Shown here: piece by piece, positions 31,622 to 53,757 of the stretch | Numbering within the stretch: the first letter of the stretch is position 1 | Layout of the letters: the number at the start of each line of letters is the position of its first letter | Virus record (IMG/VR): IMGVR_UViG_3300033388_006651 | Span: 32,001-96,000 of that record | Length of the DNA: 64,000 nt | DNA from: a virus | Reading direction: 5' to 3' (one strand) | The notes under the pieces: generated by a model | Seen by the model: the letters and a program-made list of their open reading frames with translations, nothing else | What the model was told of the DNA's origin: nothing | The model's database searches: none | Position numbers and translations under genes: made by a program

Positions 31622-32330
31622 GACTACTGTCTCTTTCAGCCCCGAACAGCATCGCTTTGGCAAGCTCTGCAAACGAGGACACGGTTACGAGGATACTGGA
31701 AAAAGTCTTCGGTTCAAATCGAACGGAAGTTGTGTGATGTGTGTCCGGGAATCGAGCGCTCAGTACCACCAGGAGCACAAGGACGAGATCCACGCTCGGG
31801 CAAAAGGGTGGCGTGCTGAGAACAAAGAATTTCTTCGTGAGAAGATGAAAGGGTACGAGAAACAGTACGGGAAGACCAAACGGGGACAGGAGGTCCGCCT
31901 TCGAGCTCGAAGATCACGGAAAGCCGAGGGACGGGATAAGATCACCCGCGATAAATACCGTCGAACCAAAAAAGGCCGTGAGTCTCAGCGCCGGTGTAAT
32001 GCCCGTTGGAGAATGCGAAAAGCCGAACAGGCCGGTGAGGTAACCCAAAATTACAAGGATGCAATGCTGGAAGCTCTCGACCATTGTTGCCCGGTTTGCG
32101 GAATCCGTTTTCACATGGGCCCCGAGCGCGTTCCAGAACAGTTGACCTGGGATCACGTTGTACCTCTCAGTGAGGATGGCTGCGATGATGACGCTAACCT
32201 GCTTCCCCTCTGCCGACGATGCAATTGTACGAAAGGCGAACGTGGGTTTGAAATATGGCTCCAGCGTCCTATCCGCTGCATCGCAGATTTGCGGGAACCC
32301 TGGCTAAGGGAAGAGATGTTTGGTGGATGA
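31620..32330 (+). CDS. HNH homing endonuclease
   Basis: CKRGH N-terminus; CPVC..WDHVVP..NLLPLCRRCNCTK. Confidence 0.8.
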   Translation: MTTVSFSPEQHRFGKLCKRGHGYEDTGKSLRFKSNGSCVMCVRESSAQYHQEHKDEIHARAKGWRAENKEFLREKMKGYEKQYGKTKRGQEVRLRARRSRKAEGRDKITRDKYRRTKKGRESQRRCNARWRMRKAEQAGEVTQNYKDAMLEALDHCCPVCGIRFHMGPERVPEQLTWDHVVPLSEDGCDDDANLLPLCRRCNCTKGERGFEIWLQRPIRCIADLREPWLREEMFGG

Positions 32331-33949: not shown

Positions 33950-33982
33950 CTACAGCTTGGATTTCAGTTTCATGCAGAACAT
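33950..33982 (-). CDS. Lys-rich leader peptide MFCMKLKSKL
   Basis: Lies between the promoter and the first tRNA-Lys; AAA, AAA, AAG. Confidence 0.55.
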   Translation of the reverse strand: MFCMKLKSKL

Positions 33983-37638: not shown

Positions 37639-38844
37639 ATGCTCGTCCTGTTCCCGTCTGACCCTTTTGAGACCTACAAGCCCGAGCCGGACTACGTCCA
37701 GGAGATCGAGATCGCAAAAGAGTGCGGCCACGAGGTTGCCTTCATCCATTGGGAAGCCCTGGTGAACGATGACGACGCTGCCGCGGCCATCAGGAAGGTT
37801 CCTGTTTTCGAGGATTCCACCCCTGCCATCTACCGGGGTTGGATGCTGACCTCCGAGCAGTACGAGAAGCTCTACGCAGAGCTCCAGATCCATGACGTTG
37901 ATCTGTTGACCACTCCCGACGCCTACCGTAAGGCCCATGAGTTCCCTGGGTGGTACTTGGAGATCCCGAAAGCGACTCCGGCGTCGGCGATCATCCAGAA
38001 GCATGAGATCAGCATGGAGAGGCTGCTCAGCAGGGCCAAGGAGATGCTCGAACAGTACGAGCACGGCATCATCATCAAGGACTACGTGAAAAGTCGGAAG
38101 CACGAGTGGGAGGAGGCGTGCTTCATCCCCGATATGTCCAAAGCTGAGGTGGTGATCGCCAACTTCCTCGAGCGCCAGGGTGACGCTCTCCAAGGCGGCG
38201 TTGTGCTCCGGGAGTTCGTGCCGCTCAAGTCGATCGGTAAGCACCCTGACTCGGGGATGCCAATGGGCGAGGAGTTCCGCATCTTCTGGATGAACGGTCG
38301 AGTGGCCGCCGCTGCGGAGTACTGGCCTTCCGAGTTCTACATCGGTGAGGAGCGTGAAGATGAGAACGCAGGTGACGGGAGCACGTACCGTGTGCCTCAT
38401 GCCCTGAGCACTCTCCCCGATCCACAGTCGCTTCTCGAACTCCTCGAAAACATCGACAACCCGTTCGTCTCGATGGACCTTGCGCGTGCCGAGGATGGTG
38501 AGTGGTTCGTCATGGAGATCGGCGACGGTCAGGTCTCTGGGCTCCCGCGCCCCAAGCTCGATGCCCGGCTCATTTACAGCCGGCTCGATCGGTTGCTCGG
38601 GCCTCCTGGGCTTGCCTCGGACGCGACACCGATGACCCAGGCACAGTTCGCCGGTATGACGTGCCACGCCGAAGGCTGCGACCACACCGGCCACGACACC
38701 GAGATGTACCTGCACCCCAAGTGCCACGTCGGTTCTCCGACCTGGGCGATTTACGAGGACGGCGTCATCAACGTGAAGTGTGCCGAGTGCAAGACGCTCG
38801 TGGTCAGAATCGCGGTTGACCCCGGTACGGTCGTCGAAGATTAG
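37639..38844 (+). CDS. ATP-grasp domain protein (R2K-like) with C-terminal Cys/His domain
   Basis: YRGWML, IIKDYVKSRKHEW, EFRIF, SMDLA, MEIGDGQVSGLP. Confidence 0.75.
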   Translation: MLVLFPSDPFETYKPEPDYVQEIEIAKECGHEVAFIHWEALVNDDDAAAAIRKVPVFEDSTPAIYRGWMLTSEQYEKLYAELQIHDVDLLTTPDAYRKAHEFPGWYLEIPKATPASAIIQKHEISMERLLSRAKEMLEQYEHGIIIKDYVKSRKHEWEEACFIPDMSKAEVVIANFLERQGDALQGGVVLREFVPLKSIGKHPDSGMPMGEEFRIFWMNGRVAAAAEYWPSEFYIGEEREDENAGDGSTYRVPHALSTLPDPQSLLELLENIDNPFVSMDLARAEDGEWFVMEIGDGQVSGLPRPKLDARLIYSRLDRLLGPPGLASDATPMTQAQFAGMTCHAEGCDHTGHDTEMYLHPKCHVGSPTWAIYEDGVINVKCAECKTLVVRIAVDPGTVVED

Positions 38845-39050
38845 AGGGCGTGGTCTCGAATGGCCTTGGTCAGCCGGCGCACTTTATTGGTGAAAATAGA
38901 GTAGAACCGGGGGTCCACTTCGTGCAGGAGATGGAGGAGAGATTCGATCTCGGCCTCGGCATCTTCCTGGTCCACGATGTTCTTGGCGACGGCACGGGTG
39001 CAGTCGGGCTGAGAGGTGAGCCAGTGGTTGATGCGTTCTTCGTAAGTCAC
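38841..39050 (-). CDS. Small hypothetical protein
   Basis: ORF. Confidence 0.4.
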   Translation of the reverse strand: MTYEERINHWLTSQPDCTRAVAKNIVDQEDAEAEIESLLHLLHEVDPRFYSIFTNKVRRLTKAIRDHAL

Positions 39051-39119
39051 GATCTAGGTGTATCGCAGGGTCTTGATCCGCCTCGGATCAAGCGCCGTCG
39101 AGAAAGTTGAAGAATTCGT

Positions 39120-39148
39120 TTGACTCGGCGTCTTAGTCCGCGTACACA
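39120..39148 (+). promoter_or_regulatory. Sigma70-like promoter for the main tRNA operon
   Basis: TTGACT-17-TACACA. Confidence 0.55.
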
Positions 39149-39195
39149 GAAATGGTCGCCGTCCCTTGGCAGGAACGCGACTCAAAGTCCCCGCC

Positions 39196-39288
39196 ATGAA
39201 ACACTCCACGACATACACAGCTACGACAACGACTACGGTCGTCGTGGCCGTCGTATTGCCCATTATGGGCGATATGACCTCGTGTTGA
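39196..39288 (+). CDS. Thr-rich (thrL-like) leader peptide MKHSTTYTATTTTTVVVAVVLPIMGDMTSC
   Basis: 8 Thr codons in codons 5-14; followed by hairpins and three tRNA-Thr genes. Confidence 0.7.
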   Translation: MKHSTTYTATTTTTVVVAVVLPIMGDMTSC

Positions 39289-39380
39289 GCATTTCCCGGC
39301 GTTGACCAAAACATCAAACGGCGCCGGGAACCCCCAAAGGGTTTGCTTCGCACGTTCAAAGGCCACGCTGGCTCCCATTC

Positions 39381-39456
39381 GCCGGTGTAGCTCAATTGGT
39401 AGAGCACTGGTTTTGTAAACCAGGGGTTGCGGGTTCGAGTCCCATTACCGGCTCCA
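39381..39456 (+). tRNA. tRNA-Thr(UGU)
   Basis: CTGGT-TTTGTAA-ACCAG; CCA. Confidence 0.9.
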
Positions 39457-39487
39457 AGTATTTCTCTTCACCCAAGGAACAGACAAC

Positions 39488-39562
39488 GCCTTTGTAGCTC
39501 AGTGGTAGAGCAGCTCATTCGTAACGAGCAGGTCGTGGGTTCGATTCCCACCTTGGGCTCCA
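39488..39562 (+). tRNA. tRNA-Thr(CGU)
   Basis: Loop TTCGTAA; CCA. Confidence 0.88.
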
Positions 39563-39564
39563 AG

Positions 39565-39606
39565 CACCAACACCAACACCAACACCAACACCAACACCAT
39601 CACCGA
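39565..39606 (+). repeat. (CACCAA)5 plus CACCAT and CACCGA
   Basis: Read directly. Confidence 0.9.
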
Positions 39607-39611
39607 CATAA

Positions 39612-39686
39612 GCCCTTGTAGCTCAGTGGAAGAGCGCTTCCTTGGTAAGGAAGAAGTCACGAGTTCGATTCTCGTCTTGGGCTCCA
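39612..39686 (+). tRNA. tRNA-Thr(GGU)
   Basis: CTTCC-TTGGTAA-GGAAG; CCA. Confidence 0.9.
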
Positions 39687-39837
39687 GGAACGCAGGACCC
39701 TCGTTCGAAGGTCACAAGCAAAAGGTAAAGACATCTGTTTTTCACACAGAAGACTGCGAGTTCGATTCTCGCCTTCCCCGCCATTTATGGGGAAGTGGTC
39801 ATAAGACGCACTCACCCCGCACACTCTCCTGCGTTCC
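39687..39837 (+). ncRNA. Module RNA A: circularly permuted tRNA-Glu(UUC), broken in the D loop, inside an 11-bp outer stem
   Basis: GGAACGCAGGA/TCCTGCGTTCC; TCACAAGCA; anticodon arm, T arm, CTTCCCC-G-CCA, TTTAT, GGGGAAG-TG-GTC; CACTC. Confidence 0.75.
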
Positions 39838-39998
39838 TTAATTTTCACCCTAATCCCAGCGCCTCGTAGAGCGAGGCACACGACAGCAGCTTCGCTTCGA
39901 GGCGAAAATGGCAGGCGACCGGACGGCCTGTGGGATCAAACAACCGATTTTTCTCAACCCCAACTTCAACCCCCAACGAACAGAAAGGACCGAGCACG

Positions 39999-40136
39999 AT
40001 GAACATCGAAAACGATGACTGCGATGATGTAGATGATACCTACGGAGCAGTGGCGCAGTTGGTAGCGCACTCGGTTGTCAGCCGAAAGGTCGCCGGTTCA
40101 AGTCCGGTCTGTTCCGCCAAGGGGGTGTTGGTCTAG
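39999..40136 (+). CDS. Asp-rich leader ORF reading into the tRNA-Asp genes
   Basis: AAAGGA SD; MNIENDDCDDVDDTY then the tRNA. Confidence 0.55.
   Translation: MNIENDDCDDVDDTYGAVAQLVAHSVVSRKVAGSSPVCSAKGVLV
40044..40119 (+). tRNA. tRNA-Asp(GUC)
   Basis: Loop TTGTCAG; GCCA end. Confidence 0.88.
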
Positions 40137-40198
40137 TTGGTTATGACGCTTCCCTGTCACGGAAGAAATCGCGGGTTCAAGTCCCGCACATCCCGCCA
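40122..40198 (+). tRNA. tRNA-Asp(GUC)
   Basis: CTTCC-CTGTCAC-GGAAG; GCCA end. Confidence 0.9.
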
Positions 40199-40204
40199 TT
40201 TTTT

Positions 40205-40279
40205 AGTCCTGTAGCTCAGTGGAAGAGCATTCCCGTCACATGGGAGAGGCCATCGGTTCGACCCCGATTGGGACTACCA
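40205..40279 (+). tRNA. tRNA-Val(CAC)
   Basis: Loop GTCACAT; ACCA end. Confidence 0.85.
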
Positions 40280-40288
40280 AGAAAACAT

Positions 40289-40363
40289 AGCTCCGTAGCT
40301 CAGTGGCAGAGCAACACCTCGACATGGTGAAGGTCGTCGGTTCGATCCCGACTGGGGCTACCA
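40289..40363 (+). tRNA. tRNA-Val(GAC)
   Basis: Loop TCGACAT; ACCA end. Confidence 0.88.
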
Positions 40364-40422
40364 ACACAACAAGTTACTAAGACACAAGGCCCTCCGTTCC
40401 ATTTTGTGCTACGCTCAGAAGA

Positions 40423-41097
40423 GTGAAGCCGGACAAACAAAAAGAGGCGCGTAGACTGCGTAAGCAGGGCCTTTCTTTGAGTGAGATCGTTACCAAAATT
40501 GGATGCGCAAAAAGTTCGGTTAGCCGCTGGACCCGGGATATCCCTCTCACTAAGACTCAAGTCAAAAACCTTCGACGAAAGGAAGATCAAGGACGACTTA
40601 AAGGCCGTATTGCAGCCGCTACCCATCCCAACTCTCCGAAACAGGTGTGGGCTAAAAAACGAGATGAAGCACGTCAAAAAGGGCACGAAGAGATTTCCCG
40701 GATCGATGACATCTCTCTCAAAATACTCATCGCGGCACTGTACTGGGGGGAAGGGTCAAAGGGTCGTAACAGTTTTTCCATAGCGAACACGGACCCTGCA
40801 ATGGTCCGCCTTATTGCCGCCTTTCTTCGAAAACATTGTCAAGTTCCTGAAGAGCGCCTTCGTTTTCGCGTCTACATTCATCCTCATTTGAGTCTCCGAA
40901 AAGCTCGTATTTACTGGGCTAAAATTGCAGGAACCTCCCCTAAAAATATCGCATCCACCACCGCTGTAAGCTCAGCTAGCCAAGGAAAGAAGGACTCGTG
41001 CCCTTACGGCACTTTTCAAATCACGTACTGTGACACCCTGTTTCGGTCTCGCATAGAAGGCTGGATGGATGCCTTGAAAGAACAGATACCGGGTTAG
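40423..41097 (+). CDS. HTH plus LAGLIDADG-like protein inside the tRNA array
   Basis: GLSLSEIVTKIGCAKSSVSRW; LYWGEG..NTDP; stop codon lies inside tRNA-Val. Confidence 0.7.
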   Translation: MKPDKQKEARRLRKQGLSLSEIVTKIGCAKSSVSRWTRDIPLTKTQVKNLRRKEDQGRLKGRIAAATHPNSPKQVWAKKRDEARQKGHEEISRIDDISLKILIAALYWGEGSKGRNSFSIANTDPAMVRLIAAFLRKHCQVPEERLRFRVYIHPHLSLRKARIYWAKIAGTSPKNIASTTAVSSASQGKKDSCPYGTFQITYCDTLFRSRIEGWMDALKEQIPG

Positions 41098-41161
41098 CTC
41101 AGTGGTAGAGCGCTGCCCTTACAAGACGGATGCAAGAGTTCAATTCTCTTACCCGGTACCA
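41088..41161 (+). tRNA. tRNA-Val(UAC)
   Basis: Loop CTTACAA; ACCGGGT/ACCCGGT; ACCA end. Confidence 0.8.
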
Positions 41162-41201
41162 GACCTCAAACCTCAACCTCTAACCACGAAAGGAACCGAC
41201 C

Positions 41202-41264
41202 ATGGAAAAAGAAGACAGCGACATTAGCGACATTATCTACTCGGCCCGTGGTCCAGTCTGGTAA
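41202..41264 (+). CDS. Ile-containing leader peptide MEKEDSDISDIIYSARGPVW reading into tRNA-Ile
   Basis: AAAGGAA SD; ATT, ATT, ATC just before the tRNA. Confidence 0.5.
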   Translation: MEKEDSDISDIIYSARGPVW

Positions 41265-41316
41265 TGGATGTCGCTCTGATAAGGCGAAGACGGAGGTTCA
41301 AATCCTCCCGGGCCGA
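41242..41316 (+). tRNA. tRNA-Ile(GAU)
   Basis: TCGCT-CTGATAA-GGCGA. Confidence 0.82.
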
Positions 41317-41326
41317 CCGACTACAT

Positions 41327-41403
41327 GGACGTGTAGCTCAGTTGGTTAGAGCGCAGCCCTGATAAGGCTGAAGTCGAAAGTTCAAATCTTTCTACGTCCA
41401 CCA
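41327..41403 (+). tRNA. tRNA-Ile(GAU)
   Basis: CAGCC-CTGATAA-GGCTG; CCA. Confidence 0.9.
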
Positions 41404-41424
41404 AGAGATTTCCAAAACACATAT

Positions 41425-41499
41425 AGCGGGATGGCGCAGTCAGGTAGCGCGCTGGGCTCATAACCCAGAGGTCGTCGGTTCAAATCCAACTCTCCGCTA
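41425..41499 (+). tRNA. tRNA-Met(CAU), initiator-like
   Basis: CTGGG-CTCATAA-CCCAG. Confidence 0.8.
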
Positions 41500-41505
41500 C
41501 TAAGG

Positions 41506-41663
41506 GCAGTAGAAGTCTGCTTGCGAAATATCTCCCTTCACCGGGAAGAGACGCTAGCGAACAAAACTTCATCCTCGCAACGGAGTTGAGGGGAGAGCAG
41601 TAGGAGATCTGCTTGCGACAATAGGCCCCGTAACTGGGTATCGAAGATAGCGAACAAAACTCC
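41506..41663 (+). ncRNA. Tandem pair of an unidentified structured RNA motif
   Basis: GCAGTAGRAG(A)TCTGCTTGCGA..TAGCGAACAAAACTYC twice, with GAAG/CTTC versus GGAG/CTCC covariation. Confidence 0.6.
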
Positions 41664-41672
41664 AACACTTGA

Positions 41673-41750
41673 CGCGGGTTGGGGAAGTCCGGCCATCCCG
41701 GTGGGCTCATAATCCACAGACCCTCGGTTCAAATCCGAGACCCGCTACCA
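41673..41750 (+). tRNA. tRNA-fMet(CAU)
   Basis: C1:U72 mismatch; CTCATAA loop; CCA. Confidence 0.85.
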
Positions 41751-41809
41751 AATCCAGTTCGACAGTGTGCGCCCGTGCGAGCCGAACCGAGTGTAGAAAC
41801 GGGCCTCAT

Positions 41810-41887
41810 GCCAGAATAGCTCAGTTGGTTAAGAGCGCTCCCCTCATAAGGGAGAGGTCATCGGTTCAAATCCGATTTCTGGTACCA
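41810..41887 (+). tRNA. tRNA-CAU (elongator Met or Ile2)
   Basis: CTCCC-CTCATAA-GGGAG; CCA. Confidence 0.88.
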
Positions 41888-42041
41888 CAAGAAACCAAGA
41901 AGCCATGAACATCCACCTGAAACAGTTGCCCATCGGCACGGCCAGTCGCATCTCGTTGTTTGCGGCCGGACAGGTGTGTTCTGCCTATCTCCCCAATCTG
42001 GAGACAGGTAGCGGATAACCCTCAGCTCGATCATGGCGCCT

Positions 42042-42077
42042 AAAAGCCCGTCGAGCTCCCTGCTCGCCGGGCTTTTT
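42042..42077. terminator. Intrinsic, probably bidirectional terminator after the tRNA operon
   Basis: AAAAGCCCG...CGGGCTTTTT. Confidence 0.7.
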
Positions 42078-42245
42078 CGTGCTCGGGCCAAGGATCAACG
42101 GCCCTCTCGAGCCCTTTTTCGCCAAACCCTCCCTGGGCCCTCCTTTTCGGACATTTTCACGAACTTTTCACGAACCAAACCAACCACGGGGTACAAGGGA
42201 CGAGCCCGAGTGCTCTGCTTTTCACGAATCAGGACAGACAAGCCA

Positions 42246-44114
42246 ATGGACAACAAAGAAACACTCGGACCCGCAGAGACCATCATCCAGTCACTGCTGG
42301 CCTACTCAGATCACATCTACCACGGCCGCCCCGGCGTCGTGGTGCCCGACGCGCGATCCACGACCGGAGTGCGATGGGACCCCGTCACCCACAAGGTCGG
42401 AGAGGACGGCGTCAAGACCGTTCTTCGCCTCACGCGAAACGGCAAGAAGACCATTCGTACCGAGATCGGCACGATGAACGGCGACAATCGTGTGAAGAAC
42501 GCGGGTGCCGATGTCGGCCTGTACCGCAAGAGCGGCCTCTTCCCAGAGGTTGCCCTGTGGTTCTACAAGCAGATCGCTGAGGTGTGGACGCTCGACAACG
42601 AATTCGCTGCTCGGTGGGCGTCGTACGCCTTCCGTCAGGAGCACCGTGACCTCAAGGTCATGCTCGCTGCGTTCATGCTCGTTCAGTCGCGTAAGGGCGA
42701 CCCCGTCATGGACGGGGGTGAGCGTCTGTTCGACGACGAGGACTACCGTGACGTGGGCGAGGCCATGGTCCTTCTCCTTGAGAAGGGCAACGACCTCAAC
42801 CCGAAGCTCCTGCTTCGGATCTACGATGTCCTGAACCTGCCCGAGATCGCAAAGATCAACCACGAGCTCGGCTTCGGCAAGTCCGCCAAGCGTCCGTTCC
42901 TCGGTCGTTGGCCCAAGGCGATCGACAAGTACCTTCGGTACCGCGAGGAGAACCCGAAGCTGCTCGAAGGGCTCGTCAACAAGGCTGCTTTCGGCAACAC
43001 CGTCAAGACTCTGGCTCGGCGTATCGGCTACAAGCCAACGTCCGACAAGTTCTTCGCTACCCTACGCTGGAAGCAGAAGCAGGCTGAAGACGGGCGTCGT
43101 GAGATGGCCATCGGTAAAGCCGTGAGGGCTGCTGAGTCGTGGGATCACCTCGACGAAGCCGGTGTTTGCGAGCTCATCGAGAAGAACAAGCCTGGCTGGA
43201 AGCGGATCGTGGGTCTCCTTCCTGCGAAGATCGGGGTCACCCGTGCGGTGATGGCTGCGACCATCGAGTCGGGCGGTCTCTCGGACAAGGATCTCATCAT
43301 CCTCACTCCAACGATCGAGGATCTTGGTCTGTTCAAGGTCCAGGAGATCAAGGCGCGTCATGCTGCGGCTCTCGCCAAGGCAAGCGACATGCGTGCGGCT
43401 AACATCGCCCGCAACGTTCGGTCCAAGGATCTCAAGGAGGAGATGGAGACCGGTGCCGACAAGGCAGCTCAGAAGGCTGCTGAGGAGGTCATCAAGAACC
43501 TGCGCCTCTACGTCGTCATCGACCGTTCGGCGTCGATGCAGGGAGCACTGGAGAAGGCGAAGCCACTGATCGCCAAGCTCATTCAGGCAATCCCAGCCGA
43601 GCGTCTGCACGTTTCGACGTTCAACACGATCGGTAAGGTGATCACCTTCAAGCACCACTCGACCGCTGGGGTCGAGGCAGCTTTCCGGGGCGTCAACGCC
43701 GGAGGGGGCACGGTGCACGCAGAAGGTGTTCGGGTTCTGGCTCAGTTCCCGCCTGCGGCAGACGAGGACTCCCTGATGATCTTCATCGGGGACGAGGGCG
43801 AGCGTCGGCACTTTGCCGAAGCTGTGGAGGCATCTGGTCTCCGTCCCCTGGCCTTCGGGCTCCTCGCCACGGTGGGTCCTCGTTGGGGTCGCGGTCAGGC
43901 GATTCGGGACACGGCTGCTCGACTGGACATCCCGTGCTTCGAGATCGATGACCGCACCTTTGATGGCGACCCGTACGCCATCCCGCGTACGATCAGGAAC
44001 CTGATCGCGGCTACCCCTGTGGGGGTGAACACCGGTCGTCGCGTCGTCCCGCGCGTGACGCTGGTGGGTCAGATCCTGGAGACCGAGATTCTCCAGAAGC
44101 CCAACTGGGCATAG
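42246..44114 (+). CDS. Helical-domain plus vWA protein, Ro60/TROVE-like
   Basis: C-terminal MIDAS DRSASM..GGT..IFIGDE after a long helical region; Ro60 assignment is inferred. Confidence 0.6.
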   Translation: MDNKETLGPAETIIQSLLAYSDHIYHGRPGVVVPDARSTTGVRWDPVTHKVGEDGVKTVLRLTRNGKKTIRTEIGTMNGDNRVKNAGADVGLYRKSGLFPEVALWFYKQIAEVWTLDNEFAARWASYAFRQEHRDLKVMLAAFMLVQSRKGDPVMDGGERLFDDEDYRDVGEAMVLLLEKGNDLNPKLLLRIYDVLNLPEIAKINHELGFGKSAKRPFLGRWPKAIDKYLRYREENPKLLEGLVNKAAFGNTVKTLARRIGYKPTSDKFFATLRWKQKQAEDGRREMAIGKAVRAAESWDHLDEAGVCELIEKNKPGWKRIVGLLPAKIGVTRAVMAATIESGGLSDKDLIILTPTIEDLGLFKVQEIKARHAAALAKASDMRAANIARNVRSKDLKEEMETGADKAAQKAAEEVIKNLRLYVVIDRSASMQGALEKAKPLIAKLIQAIPAERLHVSTFNTIGKVITFKHHSTAGVEAAFRGVNAGGGTVHAEGVRVLAQFPPAADEDSLMIFIGDEGERRHFAEAVEASGLRPLAFGLLATVGPRWGRGQAIRDTAARLDIPCFEIDDRTFDGDPYAIPRTIRNLIAATPVGVNTGRRVVPRVTLVGQILETEILQKPNWA

Positions 44115-53574: not shown

Positions 53575-53602
53575 TTGACTCTGCGTCTGAGGCGAGTACA
53601 TT
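53575..53602 (+). promoter_or_regulatory. Sigma70-like promoter for the His/Phe tRNAs
   Basis: TTGACT-16-TACATT. Confidence 0.5.
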
Positions 53603-53680
53603 CGGTTTCAAGGTAACTCTCATGTTGACGCAAGCACATACCCAGCTCCCCGATGCGGGAGCCGACTACAACACCATCAT

Positions 53681-53757
53681 GGTGTCCGTAGCTCAGTTGG
53701 TAGAGCGTTCGCTTGTGACGCGAGAGGCCGCGGGTTCAAACCCCGTCGGACACCCCA
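53681..53757 (+). tRNA. tRNA-His(GUG)
   Basis: G-1:C73; loop TTGTGAC; CCA. Confidence 0.9.

Follow-up and report, generated by a model that had tools for sequence, protein, structure and literature searches.

How do phages set the levels of the many tRNAs that they carry? This question is raised by a 64,000-nucleotide (nt) stretch of viral DNA (positions 32,001 to 96,000 of IMG/VR record IMGVR_UViG_3300033388_006651; here, the window), in which over 20 tRNA genes are arranged in groups by amino acid. The tRNA-Asp and tRNA-Ile groups are each preceded by a leader, a short open reading frame (ORF) with a run of codons for the amino acid of the tRNA that it adjoins. A sequence-only reading of the window had suggested that ribosomes translate these leaders into the tRNA itself and that this controls tRNA processing. 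From comparisons with related loci, we consider it highly probable that the leaders are real sensors of cognate tRNA that act in cis on tRNA output.

The Asp leader (MNIENDDCDDVDDTY) has 15 codons and spans positions 39999 to 40043 of the plus strand, with its ATG at 39999 to 40001, one base earlier than had been proposed. Ahead of it are a C/A-rich, G-poor spacer of 30 nt (39954 to 39983; A 0.37, C 0.47, G 0.07, T 0.10) and a Shine-Dalgarno (SD) sequence, AAAGGA (39984 to 39989), which lies 9 nt from the ATG. All six Asp codons fall within codons 6 to 13; five of the six are GAT, and the last begins at position -9 relative to the tRNA. A TAC codon (40041 to 40043) then adjoins tRNA-Asp(GUC) copy 1 (40044 to 40119; called by ARAGORN and by the Rfam tRNA model, with 61.9 bits over 40044 to 40116), which starts in frame with the leader. 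The first stop in this frame, TAG at 40134 to 40136, is located within tRNA-Asp(GUC) copy 2 (40122 to 40198; ARAGORN, Rfam tRNA). A listing of sequencing runs with this DNA named no RNA run. Among contigs from four DNA runs, one 1.7-kb contig of a close relative carries the Asp leader with its frame kept and two codons changed; the remaining matches were mostly cross-matches to the tRNAs of other organisms.

The Ile leader (MEKEDSDISDIIY; 41202 to 41241, plus strand) consists of 13 codons plus 1 nt and begins with an ATG at 41202, 40 nt after the end of the preceding tRNA. Between tRNA-Val(UAC) and this ATG are another C/A-rich, G-poor spacer (41162 to 41188; A 0.37, C 0.43, G 0.03) and another AAAGGA (41189 to 41194), 7 nt ahead of the ATG and kept in the alignment of Ile leaders. 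Isoleucine is encoded at codons 8, 11, and 12 by ATT, ATT, and ATC, with no ATA, and the last of these begins at -7. The TAC codon (41238 to 41240) and one extra base are followed by tRNA-Ile(GAU) copy 1 (41242 to 41318). The ORF ends at TAA (41262 to 41264) in the D-loop of this tRNA, before tRNA-Ile(GAU) copy 2 (41327 to 41403); both copies were called by ARAGORN and the Rfam tRNA model. The spacers, SD sequences, and codon counts of the sequence-only reading were thus borne out.

We located relatives of these units by way of a vWA-domain gene (42033 to 44114) just downstream of the tRNA array. This anchor led to 6 IMG/VR loci, 80 metagenome loci, 57 viral loci (by profile), and 23 loci in metagenome-assembled genomes (MAGs); the data set used comprised 162 sequences with 1642 tRNA genes. 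A blastn search of GenBank phages in distant mode returned tRNA-to-tRNA matches only and no relative of the leaders, and a degenerate DNA pattern for the Ile leader recovered one further viral contig only. The tRNA order Thr-Thr-Thr-Asp-Val-Ile-Met is kept in several relatives (L001, L002, L010/L089, L015, L139, and others).

Across this data set, we identified 27 distinct leaders of a single build, in which an SD sequence and an ATG are followed by a cognate codon run that abuts the tRNA: 13 for Asp, 8 for Ile, and 6 for His. In the Asp and Ile units, the cognate codons are concentrated in the final 8 to 10 codons of the ORF. Both the SD sequence and the ATG are kept in all 27 units, and the ORFs persist at loci whose adjacent vWA proteins are merely 52 to 72% identical. 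The motif GAAAGGA(GG) is kept across the 13 Asp leaders, which encode peptides such as MADDDDDDRL (L001), MPDDDDDDDDRL (L002), MDSDDSDDRDLY (L089), MNDNDSDDADDSDDTY (L015), MNTNSESDDADDTDDMY (L139), MDDDDDVHDPN (L088), MPRTNTEPLDQDSDEDDDTS (L017), MTWIDTEADDL (L091), MDTPDTDGDDRY (L055), MDSPDDDD-stop (L054), MDAPDDCDDR (L115), and MDTPDSDDR (L123). The Ile leaders encode MEDSDSDIGPIIY (L008), MEIESDISDIIS (L089), MDTQDESDIGPITE (L014), MDNQDESDIGPITN (L015), MENEDESDIGPIIY (L139), MGAPDSEIAIPS (L001), and MDDDISDIIRH (L002). His leaders of the same build (e.g., MLTTAHTDDEPHHHTY) adjoin tRNA-His, and in more distant relatives, Lys leaders adjoin tRNA-Lys(UUU).

We tested the pairing between leader and tRNA in two directions. 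First, for 51 ORFs that have an SD sequence and an ATG and run into a tRNA, we counted those with at least three cognate residues in the last 10 codons and compared this number with 10,000 permutations of the tRNA labels. Fourteen ORFs passed, whereas the null mean was 2.5 and the maximum was 8. Second, starting from 1353 unique tRNAs, we determined which tRNA follows the abutting ORFs that are rich in one residue. Every Asp-rich ORF (12/12) and every Lys-rich ORF (4/4) sits before its cognate tRNA; under a stricter threshold of at least five of one residue in eight codons, there were 10 ORFs, all of them Asp-rich and all before tRNA-Asp. The leader units are related by descent, and both sets of figures overstate the number of independent events. 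Judged by these tests, the codon match between a leader and its abutting tRNA is nevertheless far above chance, and the pattern is unambiguous despite this kinship.

Codon usage points in the same direction. Because GAT and GAC interchange between homologous leaders with the amino acid unchanged, the alignments indicate that the leaders are under selection on their codons and not on their RNA sequence. With eight long ORFs of the window as the reference, the U-ending cognate codon preferred in the leaders turned out to be the rarer form in the window's own genes. For Asp, the GAT:GAC ratio was 49:25 in leaders (66% GAT) versus 113:249 (31%) in the long ORFs; for Ile, ATT:ATC was 15:7 (68% ATT) versus 52:244 (18%); and for His, CAT:CAC was 18:7 (72% CAT) versus 50:95 (34%). 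Of the 13 Asp leaders, 12 have GAT as their final Asp codon, and ATA, which tRNA-Ile(GAU) does not read, is never used in Ile leaders. Attenuator leaders characteristically carry rare codons in the run that tests supply.

Asp and Ile leaders from the same genome align with each other from the spacer through the SD sequence and ATG into the ORF and therefore share one design, as had been noticed for the window. In L089, for example, AGC-GAC-GAT-AGC-GAT-GAT of the Asp leader stands opposite AGC-GAC-ATT-AGC-GAC-ATT of the Ile leader. A leader module was probably duplicated and then retargeted by codon replacement.

The most regular property of the units is the distance between the codon run and the tRNA. 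Counted from the first base of the last cognate codon to tRNA nucleotide 1, this distance is 9 nt (nine units) or 8 nt (four units) in the 13 Asp leaders, 7 to 10 nt in all 8 Ile leaders, and 9 to 10 nt in 5 of 6 His leaders. Pooled, the last cognate codon starts 7 to 10 nt before the tRNA in 26/27 units, and in 26/27 the last two codon slots are free of cognate codons. This leaves a gap of 5 to 6 nt for Asp and 4 to 7 nt for Ile (4 nt for the Ile unit of the window). Around this fixed gap, the length of the ORF (9 to 20 codons), the sequence of the tRNA, and the two intervening codons (TY, LY, MY, PN, RL, or TS) all vary. The TAC codon, present in both units of the window, had been listed as part of the design; as a general trait it does not hold, since it is confined to the closest relatives.

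The position at which the ORF ends is not conserved. Stops occur at -5, at +7/+8 (in the universal U8-A9-G10), at +20/+21, at +33, at approximately +90 to +100, and beyond +200. The absence of a stop before the tRNA, described for both units of the window, extends to most relatives, with exceptions in the L054 Asp leader, where a TGA at -5 takes up the gap, and in the Lys leaders of L044 and L105. We considered selection for deep read-through of the tRNA as the conserved feature and rejected it, as the frame in use is the deepest-reading one in 12/27 units versus 9 expected. Stops are found anywhere from -5 to beyond +200, and therefore what is conserved is abutment and not, as had been proposed, translation into the tRNA: in the sequences compared, the ORF ends no earlier than the ribosome's reach from tRNA +1. 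Among the Lys(UUU) leaders, those of L028, L051, L107, L115, L133, and L134 have a frame that leaves 2 nt over, and their ORFs end at the universal U8-A9-G10, read as UAG.

Both units of the window appear to lie within a larger transcription unit. A promoter-like sequence, TTGACT-N17-TACA, occurs at 39120 to 39146 on the plus strand; the window has two matches to this pattern versus 0.06 expected, and it also precedes the Thr leader in L001 and L002. The match at 39120 is a probable start, with its function deduced from the motif, of a tRNA operon that holds the Asp and Ile leaders. It is followed, in order, by a Thr leader, three tRNA-Thr genes, an odd tRNA-like module, the Asp leader, two tRNA-Asp genes, two tRNA-Val genes, an inserted endonuclease-like ORF, tRNA-Val(UAC), the Ile leader, two tRNA-Ile genes, and three CAU tRNAs. 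No terminator-like site was found on the plus strand from 38800 to 42200, and therefore the Asp and Ile leaders are probably internal to one long precursor. Given the absence of a terminator and the 5- to 6-nt gap in the Asp unit, control by termination at the junction is unlikely, as the sequence-only reading had held, and an effect on the abutting tRNA is the natural reading. An effect specific to the cognate tRNA would need to be local because the units sit inside a multi-tRNA operon.

We propose the following mechanism, in which each leader ORF is translated, gauges the charged cognate tRNA, and acts on the tRNA copy that it touches. When Asp-tRNA or Ile-tRNA is scarce, a ribosome would wait on a cognate codon. 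In the ribosome, counting from the P site, the A-site codon occupies +4 to +6, the helicase site is near +11, and mRNA is covered to approximately +15. Even if the ribosome waited at the final cognate codon of the run, the first base pair of the acceptor stem would be at about +11 to +14, barely clear of the mRNA channel, and the ribosome would be halted right where the stem begins. The nascent tRNA could then adopt its complete fold and be excised by RNase P; one step further would start to melt it. Under ample supply, the ribosome would advance, terminating from -5 onward or reading further, and would thread the 5' strand of the acceptor stem; passing ribosomes would delay or prevent tRNA folding and 5' processing for as long as loading continues. 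The absence of cognate codons from the last two slots is as expected if a waiting ribosome spares the tRNA and a moving one disturbs it. RNase P cleavage of a stop-less leader would leave a non-stop mRNA, to be removed by ribosome rescue. The net result would be negative feedback for each isoacceptor group, exerted on tRNA maturation instead of transcription, by a module that could be retargeted through codon swaps, as the paralogous Asp and Ile leaders suggest. We put ribosome-gated maturation with negative feedback on supply at slightly less than an even chance. Of the interpretation given in the sequence-only reading, the leaders stand as real, conserved, and selected on codons, and their spacing is consistent with ribosomes that leave the tRNA intact when stalled and intrude on it when passing; read-in as a conserved feature does not stand, and the effect on RNase P and its direction are what we infer.

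Several points weigh against this mechanism. The depth of read-in, as described above, is not conserved. Within the wider family, such a leader precedes only about one-quarter to one-third of the Asp, Ile, and Lys tRNAs that stand first in their group, and for His the share is about one-fifth. The His leader of the window reads ...DYNTIM versus ...DHHHLM in relatives, with all three His codons substituted away. Cleavage by RNase P could precede the first ribosome, and passing ribosomes may merely delay maturation. Finally, RNase P might be impeded by a ribosome that has stalled at the final cognate codon, and the response would then have the opposite sign.

The composition of the spacers raises the possibility of the same sensor with a transcriptional output. 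The C-rich, G-poor spacer would load Rho, and a stalled ribosome would block Rho, or alter coupling to RNA polymerase, and allow transcription to read on. Rho-dependent leader-ORF switches exist, with tnaC and mgtL as precedents, and Rho loads on C-rich, G-poor regions of roughly 60 to 80 nt. The spacers of the window (C 0.43 to 0.47, G 0.03 to 0.07) and the absence of an intrinsic terminator fit this alternative. When the Asp and Ile spacers are pooled, C is 0.39 and G is 0.18; the corresponding values for 311 other spacers between tRNAs are 0.26 and 0.29. However, in compact relatives, only 18 to 41 nt separate the previous tRNA from the ATG, which is far below the length of usual Rho sites. 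A role as unstructured RNA on which the 30S subunit lands is more likely for the spacer than Rho loading. The spacer also lies upstream of the ribosome, so a stall would leave it unmasked. Furthermore, termination would affect every downstream tRNA group and not the cognate one alone, and it would leave the fixed gap to the tRNA unexplained. We regard a Rho-based output as unlikely.

Alternatively, the free leader could act as an anti-tRNA. Its initiation region or codon run would pair with the 5' strand of the tRNA and trap a misfold, from which any ribosome would free it. In folding predictions, a native 60-nt leader abolishes the acceptor stem in 15/20 units, and there are local complementarities between GACCATGG and tRNA-Ile +5 to +12 (window and L010), between GCAGACCGAG and -3 to +7 (L015 and L139), and between CACCAT and ATG|GTG in all His units. 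However, the best leader-tRNA duplexes were no better in energy than those of shuffled leaders. Swapping leaders between genomes gave nearly the same predicted loss of the acceptor stem with foreign as with native leaders (diagonal versus off-diagonal, 0.36/0.48 for Asp, 0.11/0.17 for Ile, and 0.00/0.07 for His), and part of the complementary stretch is the SD module GGAGCAGAC common to Asp and Ile leaders. Since shuffled leaders, best duplexes, and leader swaps were all within noise, we do not claim a conserved anti-tRNA helix, and this alternative seems improbable. Among Rfam models, only tRNA matches reached the gathering score, and no leader or T-box family (His_leader, Thr_leader, T-box, and others) appeared up to E = 5 in a search of 38900 to 42100.

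A third alternative keeps the sensor and reverses its sign, such that RNase P is blocked, or the precursor targeted for decay, by a ribosome stalled beside the tRNA. The copy would then be shut off under scarcity, or the unit would serve in timing. The dimensions of the ribosome allow this, as its edge would lie only a few nucleotides from the RNase P cleavage site once the last cognate codon occupied the A site. We find it about as doubtful as anti-tRNA pairing. It is hard to see what positive feedback on a tRNA would gain. Ribosomes would mostly stall at the first cognate codons, which lie 20 to 30 nt from the tRNA and leave room for RNase P, and rare, sensitive codons fit a sensor of supply. 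Last and least probable, the ORFs could be translated or translatable with a codon match that has no regulatory role, either as ribosome-loading sites that shield the precursor or as remnants of duplicated spacer modules, as the many relatives without such leaders and the persistence of the window's His leader minus its His run might suggest, but this is at odds with the strict cognate pairing across four amino acid families, the preference for rare codons, the fixed spacing to the tRNA, and the retargeting of the same module from Asp to Ile through codon replacement.

Ribosome-gated maturation, as proposed here, resembles several known systems without coinciding with any of them. Like leader-peptide attenuators (hisL, thrL, ilvL, pheL, and pheM of pheST), the units have a short SD-led ORF with cognate, often rare, codons; the speed of the ribosome would read charged tRNA and feed back on supply for that amino acid. 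Unlike them, the Asp and Ile units have neither a stop with a switchable terminator after it nor a terminator hairpin and U-run, and alternative pairing of the 1:2/2:3/3:4 type could not be demonstrated; moreover, the product regulated would be the tRNA itself, which the ORF touches or overlaps at a fixed distance. As far as the sequences allow us to say, then, the units would work like leader-peptide attenuators yet depart from them in two defining features, as no terminator was found and no alternative hairpins could be demonstrated. In organelle tRNA punctuation and t-elements, an ORF likewise adjoins a tRNA or tRNA-like structure, and RNase P cleavage would set the 3' end of the mRNA, possibly without a stop. 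There, however, the ORF is a real protein and the tRNA is a processing signal, whereas the phage ORF is a cognate run of 10 to 20 codons and the tRNA is the payload. Rho-dependent switches share the principle that the position of a ribosome on a leader ORF decides the fate of downstream RNA with no intrinsic terminator; the phage units differ in that the stretch available in compact relatives is too short for a Rho site, their codons match the downstream tRNA, and their distance to it is fixed. T-box riboswitches also sense the charging state of one tRNA species in cis, but they bind the tRNA directly without translation, and no T-box was matched at the phage locus.

In the literature that we searched, we found no description of codon-matched leaders ahead of tRNA genes or of tRNA genes controlled through feedback from the charged tRNAs that they encode. 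The units could represent a new type of cis-regulation: through a codon-matched mini-ORF with no terminator, the ribosome would control how a tRNA folds and matures at its 5' end, and each isoacceptor group would have its own supply-and-demand loop. We hold this slightly more loosely than the gating mechanism itself. If true, translation would control tRNA maturation at single-isoacceptor resolution within a polycistronic precursor, by a rule that is simple and apparently portable (codon run, 5- to 6-nt gap, tRNA). It would provide a compact natural sensor of charged-tRNA supply and could explain why there are two different copies of one isoacceptor, one behind the leader and one free.

The parent of the window is a single 146.8-kb contig, all of whose tRNA genes fall inside the window. 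Gene content in the window is phage-like and includes a family A DNA polymerase, an NAD-dependent ligase, an intein-bearing SNF2 helicase, and homing endonucleases. The vWA protein used as the anchor has 693 amino acids with a C-terminal vWA domain; it is a constant neighbor of the tRNA arrays, with 52 to 72% identity across loci. It had no sequence match in PHROGs or solved structures, and its conserved N-terminal 400 residues also had no match in Pfam. The MAG loci with the vWA gene and tRNA arrays (L139 to L161) are mostly binned with Myxococcota (Kofleriaceae, Polyangiaceae, and Sandaracinaceae), and one of them is part of a 799-kb scaffold from the isolate Paraliomyxa miuraensis SMH-27-4. 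The binning suggests a host group but is not proof of one.

Further leaders occur in the window and in its relatives. The Thr leader (MKHSTTYTATTTTTVVVAVVLPIMGDMTSC; 39196 to 39288), right behind the promoter-like site, has a stop at 39286 to 39288 followed by a GC hairpin (CCCGGCG...CGCCGGG); leader and hairpin lie within 39196 to 39340. The whole peptide of 30 to 31 codons, including the tail ...GD(T/M)T(P/S)C, is kept in L001, L002, L010, and L046. With its stop and hairpin, this leader looks like a terminator-type design, unlike the Asp and Ile units. The window also contains a His leader ORF (53622 to 53681) that adjoins tRNA-His (53682), with the second TTGACT-N17-TACA site ahead of it at 53575; although its His codons are lost, this leader has kept the ORF, the ATG|GTG junction, and a hairpin within it. 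On the minus strand, a Lys leader, MFCMKLKSKL (33950 to 33982), has its stop 56 nt before tRNA-Lys(CUU) and is kept as MFCMKRKSKL or MFCMKRKTKL in L010 and L046. In L017 (927 to 1032), all four GCN codons occur in an Ala leader that ends in AAAAA; a stop and a hairpin follow it, ahead of three tRNA-Ala genes. In L060 (1786 to 1818), the ORF MQQHIAHRQV-stop ends 3 nt ahead of tRNA-Gln.

Two further elements lie among the tRNA genes of the operon. The endonuclease-like ORF between the tRNA-Val genes (40423 to 41097) contains a helix-turn-helix. In the 1.7-kb contig of the close relative, about 82 other letters stand in place of 40366 to 41168, a stretch that includes tRNA-Val(UAC) (41088 to 41161), and the ORF therefore looks like a mobile insertion. 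Between tRNA-Thr(CGU) and tRNA-Thr(GGU), the hexamer CACCAA occurs in approximately six copies (39563 to 39611), one frame of which reads as repeated ACC-AAC with no start codon.

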